From IMG/VR virus record IMGVR_UViG_3300049460_000134, positions 32,001 to 96,000 of that record: a stretch of DNA of 64,000 bases; one strand, given 5' to 3'. This document shows positions 55,369 to 59,612 of the stretch, piece after piece. The notes below the pieces were generated by a model. The model was given only the letters and a program-made list of their open reading frames with translations, searched no databases and was not told the origin of the DNA. Positions within the stretch are counted from its first letter, which is position 1; each line of letters begins with the position of its first letter. Source of the stretch: a virus. The position numbers and the translations under genes are program-made.

Positions 55369-55440
55369 CCGCGGCATGCCACCTTAAGCCGGAGTGATCC
55401 TAGGATGACCGAGGCGTGCCTTGGAAATCCTCGGCGAGAC
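55369..55440. repeat. 10-bp phased CC(NN)GG array
   Basis: CC at 55369, 55379, 55389, 55399, 55409, 55419 and 55429; five of the seven are CCNNGG. Confidence 0.75.
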
Positions 55441-55453
55441 CTTCTTTCCGAGT

Positions 55454-55511
55454 CCGTGTTCTCACTAATATAATCTTCTTATCTACGTATTATCTATTAG
55501 TGAGAACATGG
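55454..55511. repeat. 17-bp inverted repeat around a 24-nt AT-rich loop
   Basis: ccgtgttctcactaata ... tattagtgagaacatgg (16/17 match). Confidence 0.75.
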
Positions 55512-55665
55512 CTCCGGATATGTCCGGAATGTGTCCGTGGCTCTCCATACGCCGGAACGAGCCTAAACGTGCCGTGAAAAGCCGATTTCTATCCTAAAAT
55601 CAAAGACTTATGTTCTTCTCATCGAAAGCGAGCGCACTCGAAGCGCGTCACAGAGGAGAAAGAGC

Positions 55666-56346
55666 ATGCAGTCCACGTCCAACCAGGCACCGGCCACGTC
55701 CAAGAAGATAGAGGCCTACGACTTCAAGCAGGCGGCACAGAGCCATACATCTGACGAGTTGGCGGCGTTTGCCTTGCGTGTCGAGCAGGCGTTCACCGCA
55801 AGAGCGCAGTTCGAGCTCGACCAGACGAGCAACGCCGACGAGCCGATCCAGAAGAAGCTCGCCACCGCACGCAAGTCCTTCTCTATGCCGGACACACTGC
55901 GCGGCATGATCGAACTCAACCTCGATCCGGAGTTCATCAACGGCACGCTCTCCAAAGACGGCAAAGGCAAGCGCCTGAACGTCTATGCCATCAAGAAGGC
56001 GCAGCAGATCGTGGACTTCATGCTCGGCAAGGACAAGCTGCCGGAGGTGCTGATCGCCTGCCTCAAGTCGATGGTGGCATTCAAGGCGGCCGGCGAGAAG
56101 TTCACGGCAGAGTTTTCCAAGGCTGCAGTCTCAGACAAGATCAGGCTCGCGCCATCTGCCGGCCTTAAGCTCCTTGTCAGGCACAACGTCGATAAGGCTA
56201 CCGCCTCGACGCAGGCAAGTAGTAATATGCGCATTCTGCAGGCTCTTGGTCTGGTGAAGAACGTAGGCAGTGCACGCTCCGGTGTGTATGAGCTGACGGA
56301 TACAAAGCAGGCGGTAGCGCTTGTGGATCTTCTGAGGTCAGCCTAG
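55666..56346 (+). CDS. Putative DNA-binding protein, paralog of 58471-59055
   Basis: Shared blocks NVYAIKKA, LKSMVAFKAAGEKFT and MRILQALGLV. Confidence 0.6.
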   Translation: MQSTSNQAPATSKKIEAYDFKQAAQSHTSDELAAFALRVEQAFTARAQFELDQTSNADEPIQKKLATARKSFSMPDTLRGMIELNLDPEFINGTLSKDGKGKRLNVYAIKKAQQIVDFMLGKDKLPEVLIACLKSMVAFKAAGEKFTAEFSKAAVSDKIRLAPSAGLKLLVRHNVDKATASTQASSNMRILQALGLVKNVGSARSGVYELTDTKQAVALVDLLRSA

Positions 56347-56419: not shown

Positions 56420-56540
56420 GGCTATAGAGAGACCAAGGATATCCGTGGCAGCGGCCATTAGGAACCGGTGGGGTCCAAGGGACCGGCCGCTAGAAACCAC
56501 GCATGTCCGCTCCAGGTGTAGGGGAAGGATTGGGTTGATG

Positions 56541-56586
56541 CCGCGGCGATCCTAGGCGATCCGTGGCAGGCCGCGGCAAACCTTGG
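56541..56586. repeat. 10-bp phased CCNNGG array
   Basis: ccgcgg 56541, cctagg 56551, ccgtgg 56561, ccgcgg 56571, ccttgg 56581. Confidence 0.8.
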
Positions 56587-56707
56587 CTGAGGCATCGCCT
56601 CCCCTCTCCTATCCGTGCCTCGCCGGAGTGATCCAGAGATTGCCGATTGCATGCCTCTCTCTATCATCGTATCAGTAATTATTGACTGACAAACACAAGA
56701 GAGACAC

Positions 56708-57040: not shown

Positions 57041-57282
57041 GCCATAGCGAGCGTCGCTGACCGCGGCGCTTTCATTTGGCTTGTCGAGTGCCGTGGCGAT
57101 CCTTGGAACCCGCCGAGGGGCAGTCCACGCCACACCAGGCCGGTCCAGTCCTCATCCGGCCAGGCCAGGTCCACGGCACGTCAGGCCGCCTCACCCTGCA
57201 AGACCCCTGCAATGCCGATTTGATCGCCTTTAGCGACTTCGCTAAAACAATAATTAGCGAAACACGAAAGAGAGACACGCGC

Positions 57283-57606
57283 ATGACCAACGAACTCGTA
57301 AAGACCGCCGCCATTGCTCTGCTCAATCATCTGTCCACGATGAACGATGATGCCTTTGAGCGCGTCGATACCGACTACATCGACTATTCGCCTGACGCGC
57401 ACTTCACAGTCGCCTTGTTCGACGCGATCGAGCCAGCCAAAGACCGCAACTACTTCGACATGATTACCGAGTTCACCTACGAGCTCGCCAGTGTCACCAA
57501 GAGCGATGACGATCGTGCCGACGTCGATCGCTTCTGCACCAAGCTCTTCTCCGCCCTCCTCCGTTTCGAAATGAGCGAGAACATCCAGAGTCTCGACGCC
57601 TCATAG
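57283..57606 (+). CDS. Acidic hypothetical protein lacking Gly and Trp
   Basis: 107 aa; no GG on the coding strand. Confidence 0.55.
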   Translation: MTNELVKTAAIALLNHLSTMNDDAFERVDTDYIDYSPDAHFTVALFDAIEPAKDRNYFDMITEFTYELASVTKSDDDRADVDRFCTKLFSALLRFEMSENIQSLDAS

Positions 57607-57682
57607 CGCCGACAACATCCATTTGAACGCCTTTAGCGAATTCGCTAAATATTTAAGTGTCAACAACGTGAGAGCGAGACAC

Positions 57683-57853
57683 ATGCAAACGATCATTCCA
57701 GCGCCGACCGTCAGATACCACATAAAAGAAATGACGCCGCGCCAGTCGAACTTCGCAAGCCAAGCCCTGTCGCTTGCCAAGGAGACTGCCGCCTTCATTG
57801 CCTTTATCGTCTTCGTCTGTGCTGTCATCGCCGTGTGCGTGATAATCCACTAA
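57683..57853 (+). CDS. Small membrane protein lacking Gly and Trp
   Basis: C-terminal hydrophobic helix; followed by terminator 57860-57902. Confidence 0.45.
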   Translation: MQTIIPAPTVRYHIKEMTPRQSNFASQALSLAKETAAFIAFIVFVCAVIAVCVIIH

Positions 57854-58018
57854 GTCGAGAGCCAGGTCCGGACACCGCCATGTCACCGGACCTGGCTTTT
57901 TCATTGCCTGAAACCATGGCATGCCACGGTTGCCAAAATCAGGAACCGAGGCTATTCGTGCCAAGGGGATCCAGTCCGGCGAGTCCCGCTGGCGATGCCT
58001 GTCAATATATGAGCGCTC

Positions 58019-58083
58019 GCTACATCGCTCGACGCTTCATTAGTCGATGCTACATTACGCGCTGCTGCATTAGTCGACGCTTC
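58019..58083. repeat. Degenerate 15-bp tandem repeat (about 4 copies)
   Basis: gctacatcgctcgac / gcttcattagtcgat / gctacattacgcgct / gctgcattagtcgac. Confidence 0.6.
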
Positions 58084-58164
58084 GAAAGCGCACGCTCTCA
58101 CACCTCTTGCTCAATTAGCGCATGCTCACAGACACGCGCTCGCGAGCCTGTCCGTTTCCGCACC

Positions 58165-58203
58165 AAAAACAAAGAAAAGCACACGCTTGTTTAGCGTGTG
58201 CTT
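58165..58203 (-). terminator. Intrinsic terminator for the minus-strand genes
   Basis: aagcacacgct/agcgtgtgctt stem preceded by an A-tract; the stem contains no GG or CC. Confidence 0.65.
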
Positions 58204-58221
58204 GTATCTGCTTTTGCTGTT

Positions 58222-58401
58222 TTATTCAGCGCTCATGCGCTCGCGTTCTGTGGTGCGCACATAGTCGCGCATGTCGAAATACTCGCTTTCATAGTCGCGC
58301 TCTAACAGCGCAACGTCTGAGGTGTTAGCAAACGACATGCTAAGCGCTTGTCTGAAGTTGTCGCGCTCGCGACGCTCTTTCTTTGTCATGTGTATGCGCA
58401 T
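58222..58401 (-). CDS. 59-aa charged protein not in the ORF track, lacking Gly, Pro and Trp
   Basis: MRIHMTKKERRERDNFRQALSMSFANTSDVALLERDYESEYFDMRDYVRTTERERMSAE*; GAGAG SD; lies between an operator and a terminator. Confidence 0.5.
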   Translation of the reverse strand: MRIHMTKKERRERDNFRQALSMSFANTSDVALLERDYESEYFDMRDYVRTTERERMSAE

Positions 58402-58470
58402 TATCTAAATCTCTCGTTGGTGTTTCGTGTGAGTGTCAGTCAATTAAGACTGACACTCGTTTCTGTGGTG

Positions 58471-59055
58471 TTACGCGCTCAGCTTCGCTTCAATGAGCGC
58501 AAAGATTGCGTTGTTGTTGACTGCATATTCAGTCTTGTTTTTCTGCTCAATCAGATTGAGCGCATGCAGTGCGCGCATGCTCATGTTTGCATGTCGTGCA
58601 TAGTTCGCGAATTGCGTGCGACGCTGATAGATGAGCGCTTTTTTGGTGTCGTCGATTTTCGCGCTCGCGTTCAAGCTGTCTTCAATGTCGCGCACAGTGA
58701 AGTTTACATTAGCGTTCTTGAAGTTAACAAGCGTGCGCAACACTTCTTCGAGATTGCTCTTGAGGTGTTTTACATCGTCGCGCGTTGCGAACTTGAGCAA
58801 GCTATCAACACTGTTGATTGCTTTCATGCACATATACTTATTTTCGACGCGCTTGTCGTGCGAAAACACCTCAGAAACGTTGCTCTTCTTGAGCAACGCA
58901 GCAACGCTTTTCTGCGATACTGTGAGCGTTACATCAGTGATGAACTTGAGCGATGCAGCGCATGCACCATTTTTCAGTTCATCGTCATAGCGCTTGTTCA
59001 AATCTGCAGCGTATGCGTTGATCTTGACTTCGTTGTTCTTCGTTACTTCAGTCAT
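58471..59055 (-). CDS. Putative DNA-binding protein, GG/CC-depleted paralog of 55666-56346
   Basis: 194 aa with 1 Gly, 0 Pro and 0 Trp; alignable blocks with 55666. Confidence 0.65.
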   Translation of the reverse strand: MTEVTKNNEVKINAYAADLNKRYDDELKNGACAASLKFITDVTLTVSQKSVAALLKKSNVSEVFSHDKRVENKYMCMKAINSVDSLLKFATRDDVKHLKSNLEEVLRTLVNFKNANVNFTVRDIEDSLNASAKIDDTKKALIYQRRTQFANYARHANMSMRALHALNLIEQKNKTEYAVNNNAIFALIEAKLSA

Positions 59056-59612
59056 TTGCTTGTCTTTCTTTCGTTGTGCTGTTTAATCAGCGTTGTTAAC
59101 ATGTTCACTAAACACTTATTCGCAAAAACAGTCAAGCGTATCAGTCAAAAATAACTGACATTTTGCGAAAATAATTCGATGCACTCTATTTGACACATAG
59201 ACGCGCACTGACGCGCGTTGTGTGTCGTGCGCTGTCATCTATCGTTTTTGTGCGTCGCTGCATCCCTCGTGCAACGTCGTGACAATGCGCGCGTGATTGA
59301 TTCTCTAGTGTCGCGTGACAGTGTTGCTAGCGTGAGTTTTCGAGGTGAAAGCGAAGTCTTAGAAAAAAGTGCGTCGCTCGAAAGGGATGCCTCCTGCTGC
59401 GCCGACACTTCCCGGCTCGGACTACCTGTCCTCATTCCCGGCCTGGACGGACAGCATAGGTGCGGTATGCCGAGGCCCCTCCCCTGCTCTCCCCTCTACC
59501 AGACCGCCCAGATTCCCGGATCCCGGACTACCTATCCTTATGTGTCAGTAACTATTGACTGACATTCGACGCGCGGCTACAGTCGCCTCATCATCAACGC
59601 AGGATCTCTCCT

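Follow-up and report, generated by a model that had tools for sequence, protein, structure and literature searches.

What leads a phage genome to write one of its operons almost without two adjacent guanines or two adjacent cytosines, at the expense of the very proteins encoded there? The question arises at a locus of the IMG/VR virus record IMGVR_UViG_3300049460_000134, a 115,555-bp contig (57.4% guanine plus cytosine, GC) whose positions 32001-96000 constitute the window analyzed here, a stretch of 64,000 nucleotides (nt) to which the coordinates below refer unless indicated otherwise. The assembly is circular, with contig ends overlapping by ~150 nt, and belongs to the RHEph10/pLM21S1 group: plasmid-prophages of the Rhizobiaceae of ~115 kb that carry ParA/ParB, RepC, a T5-like A1 protein, Pol III alpha, rIIA/B, a sigma factor, and RtcB. 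The region of interest is of an early type, its small genes being served by separate promoters and terminators, and contains a 1.4-kb zone—hereafter the GG/CC desert—from which GG and CC have nearly vanished, and which forms a leftward operon amid rightward early-type genes.

The original prediction, made by eye from the letters of the window, had counted 16 GG/CC dinucleotides between 58000 and 59382 where about 150 were expected at a GC content of about 48%. Our recount returned the same 16, the measured GC content was 47%, and base-preserving shuffles gave 155 ± 10 GG/CC (minimum 119 in 20,000; z = -14), so that the depletion survives a correction for composition. Eleven of the 16 stand in (A/T)GGTG or CACC(A/T), again as described, and the remainder comprise three in a CC cluster at 58147-58158 and two from a CCC at 59264-59265. 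The edges are as abrupt as had been claimed, the left one being preceded by 30 GG/CC in 57862-57998 and the right one followed by 17 within 66 nt (59384-59449). Over all the 1384-nt segments of the genome the mean was 163 GG/CC and the lowest value outside the zone 125; while a sliding scan in 400-nt segments gave observed/expected ratios (o/e) for GG/CC of 0.06-0.18 in the zone versus a genome mean of 0.71 (standard deviation 0.12), no zone other than the desert dropping below 0.39. The longest gap between GG/CC dinucleotides amounts to 35 times the mean spacing, compared to 7-12 times for the nine other dinucleotide classes. A test for a genome-wide under-representation of GG/CC was negative, the o/e outside the zone being 0.72 versus 0.83 in a host replicon. 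At the zone the GC content drops from 57% to 47%, and the dinucleotides that compensate for the loss are GC (o/e 1.88) and CG (1.74), with TC/CT/GA/AG not being raised; in the pooled deserts GCGC (345), CGCG (279), and TCGA (121) are plentiful. The ban is symmetric, GG and CC being excluded with equal strictness on the sense strand, and the lineage of the window tolerates GGTG only, whereas the other lineages tolerate nothing.

That selection on the DNA overrides the protein sequence, as the original prediction had surmised, was strongly supported by counts of codons and codon junctions, by substitution tests, by conservation among relatives, and by a paralog that uses glycine. In a pool of 1,907 codons from the 194-amino-acid (aa) gene of the desert in ten genomes, GCC accounted for none of the 294 alanine codons (versus 33% elsewhere in the genome); TCC, CGG, and AGG were unused; and ACC occurred in 3 of 81 instances. 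Junctions at which a codon ending in G meets one beginning with G numbered 2 versus the 174 expected, and the corresponding C-to-C junctions 2 versus 97. The amino-acid composition was displaced as well: compared to the genome-wide values, glycine fell to 0.1% from 7.3%, proline to 0 from 4.0%, and tryptophan to 0 from 1.1%, while asparagine rose to 8.0% from 3.8%. The deserts of relatives differ from each other at 11-27% of their sites, and when the same substitutions were placed at random, 34-88 new GG/CC arose, as opposed to the 0-5 observed (12-16 in the GGTG-tolerant lineage). One such comparison is that of the relatives L006 and L008, which are separated by 357 substitutions and both contain no GG/CC at all, where 88 ± 8 would be expected neutrally. 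These results demonstrate a long-standing purifying selection on the double-stranded DNA against every GG/CC step, and one that is ongoing.

A desert was found in all 17 of the distinct related loci compared—phage isolates, resident plasmids, and metagenomes, distributed over two deep branches—and it was syntenic in every relative whose DNA was obtained. The first branch includes the phage isolates RHEph10, RHph_Y2_11, N1_15, and N1_10, the IMG/VR contigs L005-L010 (with protein identities as low as 27%), and the resident plasmid p5 of Pararhizobium qamdonense; the second, the phages RHph_X66 and B1VFA along with the plasmids pLM21S1 (Sinorhizobium) and pRlX6 (Rhizobium beringeri). Runs with no GG/CC whatsoever extend for 1350 nt in L006, 1339 nt in L008, 1447 nt in L010, and 1334 nt in pLM21S1 (L021), and a metagenome contig of 1378 nt contains a single GG/CC. 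Inside the zone the DNA similarity to RHEph10 is limited to 83 nt at 78%, and the reading frames and 42 invariant residues of the desert protein are kept among the relatives. In the second branch the desert is shorter (~0.85-1.35 kb) and surrounds the winged-helix gene alone, which contraction identifies that gene as the invariant core.

The desert thus coincides with a leftward operon that encodes a basic winged-helix protein, predicted to bind DNA, and a tiny conserved protein, together with their promoter, operators, terminator, and flanking repeats; Table 1 lists these elements with the other features of the region. The compositions originally reported for the two products proved accurate: the 194-aa product includes a single Gly and neither Pro nor Trp, along with 21 Asn; and all three avoided residues are missing from the 59-aa product. 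The promoter of the operon was absent from our promoter scan, whose rule demands an A as the second letter of the second hexamer. As ribosome-binding regions we find GAAAGAAAG and GAGAGA, not GGAGG, in keeping with the GAAAG/GAGAG sites noted at the outset; words of this kind can pair with the CUUUCU tail of the alphaproteobacterial 16S rRNA. The terminator stem is free of GG and CC, likewise as stated. Inverted repeat A, which occurs twice within the zone, is also found on two rightward promoters outside, at 56669 and 59542. Within the desert the position of GAGGGAT is kept in most relatives of the RHEph10 branch (as CAGGGA in two, and as the reverse complement in L014), and a G(A/C)GGGA(C/T) word stands near each end of the desert. 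Both edges are conserved GG/CC-rich blocks, and the desert begins ~250 nt ahead of the predicted promoter and ends 45-150 nt after the terminator; since the ban exceeds the predicted transcript at both ends, the mRNA alone does not account for it. We also considered an open reading frame (ORF) of 268 aa on the plus strand (58348-59154), antisense to the 194-aa gene, whose counterpart is annotated as the gene in the RHEph10 record; but the counterparts range from absent to 226 aa among the relatives, unlike the conserved minus-strand protein, and the ORF is not conserved in L006 and L010. It was rejected as a gene and is probably a by-product of the restricted alphabet.

Table 1. Features of the GG/CC desert and its surroundings, in window coordinates.
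Feature	Position	Strand	Remarks
GG/CC desert	58000..59383	both strands	1384 nt, 47% GC, 16 GG/CC, 11 of these WGGTG/CACCW
Predicted sigma-70-type promoter of the operon (TTGACT, 17 nt, TTTAGT)	59107..59135	-	Identified by eye in the alignment
Gene of the 194-aa basic winged-helix protein	58471..59055	-	Invariant desert core in all relatives
Gene of the conserved 59-aa protein	58222..58401	-	64 aa in most relatives; without Gly, Pro, Trp
Intrinsic terminator of the leftward operon	58177..58203	-	Stem without GG/CC
Operator-like inverted repeat A (GTATCAGT..ACTGACA; type GTRTCAGT..ACTGACA)	59138..59160		Adjoins the operon promoter; family D2
Inverted repeat A, second copy	58433..58455		Between the two genes
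15-bp tandem repeats, four to five copies	58019..58093		Past the terminator, inside the desert; family D1
GAGGGAT, sole GGG word kept in the desert	59264..59270	-	~210 nt upstream of the 194-aa gene
GG/CC-rich control block, conserved	59384..59530		Abuts the right edge
CCATGG/CCACGG pair, 10-bp phase	57914..57929		Left desert edge; block conserved in relatives
Paralog of the desert protein, outside the desert	55666..56346	+	226 aa, 10 Gly, 6 Pro, 78 GG/CC in 681 nt; ~2 kb from the desert
CCRYGG array, five units at exact 10-bp phase	56541..56586		Intergenic
CCRYGG array, 4 units	55399-55434		10-bp phase
Further CCRYGG arrays	56433-56448, 57091-57106, starts 52157, 63529		10-bp phase
GG-free stretch	57184..57781	+	597 nt, CC normal; spans the promoters and reading frames of two rightward genes that converge on the desert (107 aa, start 57283; 56 aa, start 57683)
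Inverted repeat B (TTTAGCGAnTTCGCTAAA)	57229-57246, 57632-57649		Between -35 and -10 of two promoters

As to the nature of the 194-aa protein, neither it nor the other proteins of the cassette and its neighborhood gave any over-threshold match in Pfam, PHROGs, NCBIfam, or PADLOC, the same scan yielding a weak PHROG match to Gp5.5-like H-NS inhibitors (E 0.006). The AlphaFold (AF2) model was confident, with a predicted local distance difference test (pLDDT) of 89.8 and a predicted template-modeling score (pTM) of 0.85. Its residues 99-194 form a winged helix-turn-helix (VIA Z 7-8.4, root-mean-square deviation 2-3 Å, 67-83 aligned residues) that matches many regulators in a generic manner, while the N-terminal half resembles a second winged helix, with weak matches to MukE and BpuJI. 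Foldseek against the PDB returned nothing at E ≤ 0.001; and the ESM Atlas search, hypothetical proteins only. A plasmid Rep initiator of the iteron type would combine tandem winged helices with direct repeats at an origin and an inverted-repeat operator; 15-bp tandem repeats and inverted repeats are present at the locus, and among the fold matches listed there was no Rep structure. The modeled fold is of the kind found in MarR/ArsR-like regulators, through those generic matches, and the 194-aa sequence matched no curated family.

A profile search of 1.84 billion representatives gathered 52 clusters mutually less than 50% identical. Glycine, proline, and tryptophan are all absent in 42 of the 58 family sequences, and 48 of the 58 contain at most one such residue, where the chance of that absence for a single protein of 190 aa is ~1e-11. 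The family is basic (median isoelectric point 9.1), and one member lies on a 111-kb contig of a metagenome-assembled genome (MAG) of Undibacterium, a betaproteobacterium, which occurrence indicates that the Gly/Pro/Trp-free habit is older than the Rhizobiaceae group. Glycine or proline has been regained in the members P0029, P0047, P0058, and P0061. The DNA of the distant members P0019, P0026, and P0059 was not found in the viral and genome collections. Outside the desert the window encodes a paralog of the protein in ordinary DNA: the paralogy emerged from profile comparison (96% probability, E 4.8e-9, 179 columns), BLASTP between the 194- and the 226-aa sequences giving no match. At 4 of the 8 aligned glycine positions of the paralog the desert copy has asparagine. 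In this genome, therefore, one fold is written in two alphabets, and the desert proteins have been rewritten to fit the ban, losing Gly, Pro, and Trp and placing Asn where the chain turns. Upstream of the paralog gene, at 55447-55518, we also observed a 72-nt element with inverted arms of 24 nt around an AT-rich core.

The paralog gene is bordered on both sides by a second peculiarity of the region. CCNNGG at a spacing of exactly 10 bp occurs in 12 pairs versus the 1.5 expected, all of them located in intergenic gaps at 52-63.5 kb of the window; the arrays are built of CCRYGG, 35 of the 101 units being CCATGG. The arrays occupy the early-region gaps from a terminator to the next promoter, are kept in all the relatives, and are absent elsewhere in the genome. 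When the spacings in the loci of eight relatives were pooled, the 10-bp peak contained 52 pairs versus ~4 at the neighboring spacings, an echo being visible at 20. In the complete genome of RHph_Y2_11 all seven of the seven in-phase pairs fall within the 2.6 kb adjoining its desert, and the second branch behaves alike.

Next to the desert lies a third feature, a stretch of 597 nt that is devoid of GG on one strand, constituting the longest gap between GG dinucleotides in the genome (mean spacing 16.7); a sense-strand GG-free stretch is present in L005 and L008 too. Of its two rightward genes, the one beginning at 57683 encodes a membrane-like protein. Both copies of inverted repeat B are in this stretch, though in the relatives it is the desert operon whose promoter carries that repeat; the arms resemble the KorB operator of RK2.

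Which function, then, does the ban serve? Since it covers ~1% of the genome, it cannot protect the integrity of the whole and must therefore protect a local function; with GG/CC-rich DNA flush at both edges, moreover, it is no protection against a cutter. When cutting is the threat, this family removes words everywhere, as is the case for GTAC: that tetranucleotide is absent from the 115.5 kb of this genome (154 expected) and from the 117 kb of RHph_Y2_11 (116 expected), and occurs 61 times in 50 kb of the host replicon p42f, thus constituting a restriction-site purge of textbook strength. GTAC is the only word whose loss extended throughout the genome; GGCC (o/e 0.65) and CTAG (0.36) are also low. 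The local function so protected, we infer, must be the expression and regulation of the cassette.

Our tentative preference is for a cassette kept invisible to a nondestructive, GG/CC-reading DNA-binding factor, possibly its own product. The factor proposed would recognize GG/CC steps without destroying the DNA, would dock on the CCRYGG arrays—one helical turn apart and beside the desert—and, from there, would occupy or silence the neighboring early-gene DNA; whereas the regulator cassette, although within reach of the factor, would stay expressed because it offers no foothold. A reader of this kind would explain the locality and the symmetry of the ban, its extension to promoters, operators, and repeats, and the confinement of the arrays to this place. 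The exclusion of a CC/GG-reading protein that coats the DNA was one of three causes envisaged in the original prediction, and it is the only one of them to have gained circumstantial support, from the phased CCRYGG arrays confined beside the desert.

Several considerations nevertheless weigh against that explanation. The only link between the arrays and the desert is their adjacency; and a reader of double-stranded DNA leaves the strand-specific GG-free stretch at 57184-57781, with its equivalents in L005 and L008, unaccounted for, as it does the tolerance of GGTG by one lineage. The partition and replication genes required in the plasmid state, a few kilobases away, are not protected; the fold matches of the winged-helix protein are generic (Z ~8, with nothing at E ≤ 0.001 in Foldseek); and we know of no DNA-binding protein documented to read a bare dinucleotide with a purging of single occurrences. 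Comparable known systems are silencers: H-NS/MucR-type proteins nucleate and spread, and KorB-type proteins repress at long range on plasmids. These resemble the present case in having high-affinity sites beside the silenced genes, and the arms of inverted repeat B are KorB-operator-like; but such silencers read an AT-rich shape or a 13-bp site, and to our knowledge none is excluded by the loss of one dinucleotide. More doubtful still is the specific version in which the winged-helix protein or its paralog is itself the GG/CC-reading, DNA-coating or silencing factor, nucleating on the CCRYGG arrays and having its own gene written in an alphabet that it cannot see: the gene of a regulator would then be blind to its own product, a notion that is speculative.

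A different cause, which we regard as unlikely, is an escape from a covalent modification that the phage would itself introduce, through an unrecognized enzyme, at the G of GG or the C of CC, so that a first-needed cassette would be left unmarked and be seen as plain DNA by the host RNA polymerase and repressors. The lineage-specific tolerance of GGTG resembles a shift in the specificity of an enzyme, and the strand-specific stretch would fit a mark that matters on the template strand; but the genome contains no match to the C5 (PF00145) or the N4/N6 (PF01555) DNA methyltransferases and none to the tRNA-guanine transglycosylase (TGT)/DpdA family (PF01702), a family that was matched in all 14 of the 14 control genomes; nor is a modification enzyme or a methyltransferase to be found in the InterPro-based annotation of RHph_Y2_11. 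The self-modification with 7-deazaguanine by DpdA accordingly differs from the present case in that no transglycosylase of the TGT family is matched here. A complete purge of GTAC would be needless in a broadly modified genome, suggesting instead a reliance on the loss of sites, and these elements also live as ordinary plasmids. These results speak against the proposal that the zone is kept free of a phage modification.

An evasion of defenses ranks next and is likewise improbable: the first DNA to be exposed or expressed would be invisible to systems keyed to CC/GG, such as the protospacer-adjacent motifs (PAMs) of type I-F (CC) and Cas9 (NGG), GC-rich restriction sites, or some other sensor. 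PAMs of the CC/GG type are the best-known two-letter readers in bacteria, the family does evolve by loss of motifs (GTAC), and the cassette is in an early-type region of small genes. Nevertheless, a single cut anywhere kills the phage, so that guarding 1% of its DNA would be of little use, and a cutter would still sever the cassette at the GG/CC-rich DNA of its two edges; GCGC, CGCG, and TCGA abound in the deserts; resident plasmids maintain the ban; and PAM recognition leaves the GGTG tolerance unexplained. The depletion of PAMs in phages is modest, genome-wide, and statistical (Kupczok and Bollback, 2014; PMC4246573), whereas the desert is near-absolute and local (1.4 kb of 115.5 kb), although in both instances a very short motif needed by a DNA-reading machine is depleted. 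Restriction-site avoidance in phages similarly involves a selection on DNA words that overrides codon choice, as seen here for GTAC; but it classically concerns sites of 4-8 bp throughout the genome and leaves the proteins intact, while here two letters are excluded over 1.2-1.4 kb and three amino acids are abolished. In the vicinity of these questions, a segment of p42f of R. etli CFN42—the natural host of RHEph10—at 109.7-120 kb (L016 9773-20039) contains genes for AIPR, PD-(D/E)XK, Z1, and ATPase proteins beside a C5 cytosine methyltransferase and a Vsr endonuclease, which gene set looks like a defense island.

The more specific form of that argument, namely that the zone would be a first-injected or terminal segment analogous to the early ends of T5, is weakened by the circular assembly and by the resident plasmids that keep the desert. 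The first-step-transfer (pre-early) DNA of T5 is comparable in that it contains a small, first-needed gene set, and the present family encodes an annotated T5-like A1; but the desert contains only the winged-helix and the 59-aa genes, without A1, A2, or dmp, and RHph_Y2_11 has its A1 homolog (52-54 kb) ~40 kb away from its desert (10.4-11.6 kb). When we compared the first-step-transfer DNA of T5 (L015 1-9100) with the next 30 kb, CG (o/e 1.34) and GC (1.58) were raised and AG/CT (0.79) and GA/TC (0.76) lowered, and these mild shifts, with no ban, led us to reject T5 as a precedent.

If the reader acted instead on RNA or at the level of transcription, the messages would have to lack GG, for example as a protection against a GG-cutting endoribonuclease or against pairing with the anti-Shine-Dalgarno sequence. 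Endoribonucleases with such preferences exist: the RegB of T4 cuts at GGAG; and the GCU-free messages of mqsR/mqsA along with the ACA-less genes avoid the words attacked by a toxin, which is sometimes their own product. The two genes convergent on the desert, GG-free on the sense strand only (in L005 and L008 as well), the replacement of GGAGG by GAGAG/GAAAG ahead of the start codons of all these genes, and the RtcB RNA ligase carried by the phage would be consistent with such a mechanism. We consider it less probable still than the evasion of defenses, since on the sense strand CC is banned as strictly as GG, since the ban also includes ~250 nt ahead of the predicted promoter as well as DNA past the terminator, and since even the sense-strand stretch starts ~70 nt before the predicted start of transcription. 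The likeness to toxin-blind mRNAs of the MqsR/MazF type—a gene that lacks the short word targeted by a sequence-specific factor—is accordingly partial, for theirs is a strand-specific, RNA-level avoidance of three letters, while here both strands and DNA outside the predicted transcript have been purged.

Very improbable is an avoidance of damage or mutation, in which GG would be shunned as the preferred site of guanine oxidation or alkylation, so that the gene restraining a lethal prophage would be spared and the GG-rich arrays would act as sinks. The position of a GG-free gene between dense GG/GGG blocks matches the old idea of cathodic protection, and the ban is indeed symmetric on both strands; but nothing tested was in support, neither the strictness of the ban, noncoding DNA included, nor the GGTG exception would be expected, and other essential genes are unprotected. 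Hardly credible, finally, is an absence of function, the zone being of foreign origin or shaped by a local bias in mutation, for example a CC-specific deamination: although the drop in GC is roughly that expected if every GG/CC had lost one G or C, the compensation is in GC/CG and not in TC/CT/GA/AG, the reading frames and invariant residues are kept, the flanking GG/CC-rich blocks are conserved untouched, and a mutational origin is ruled out by the free change without new GG/CC between L006 and L008.

The Rfam and tRNA scans of the region revealed nothing relevant, the 64 kb of the window containing no tRNA. In two members of the second branch, tRNA genes (Asn-GTT, Met, and Trp or a CCA pseudo-tRNA) stand ~1.3 kb from the desert, in B1VFA at L020 2612-2849 and in RHph_X66 at L019 2396-2644.

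The original prediction had stated that no description of such an architecture was known, and our literature searches agree, having yielded genome-wide motif depletion (PMC4246573) and no local, near-absolute dinucleotide ban with recoded proteins. The ban means that selection on the raw DNA sequence can dominate the composition of a protein, and that a family of proteins folds without glycine, proline, and tryptophan after the long exclusion of a two-letter word, which winged-helix folds are of interest for protein design. The ban implies a reader of GG/CC in the cell, and the cassette provides a direct handle for finding that reader. Should the winged-helix protein or its paralog prove to be the reader, the desert would represent a new principle, the self-exemption of a global regulator; and, given that 42 of 58 diverged members are Gly/Pro/Trp-free, and given the member from a betaproteobacterial MAG, that self-exemption would be old and widespread.

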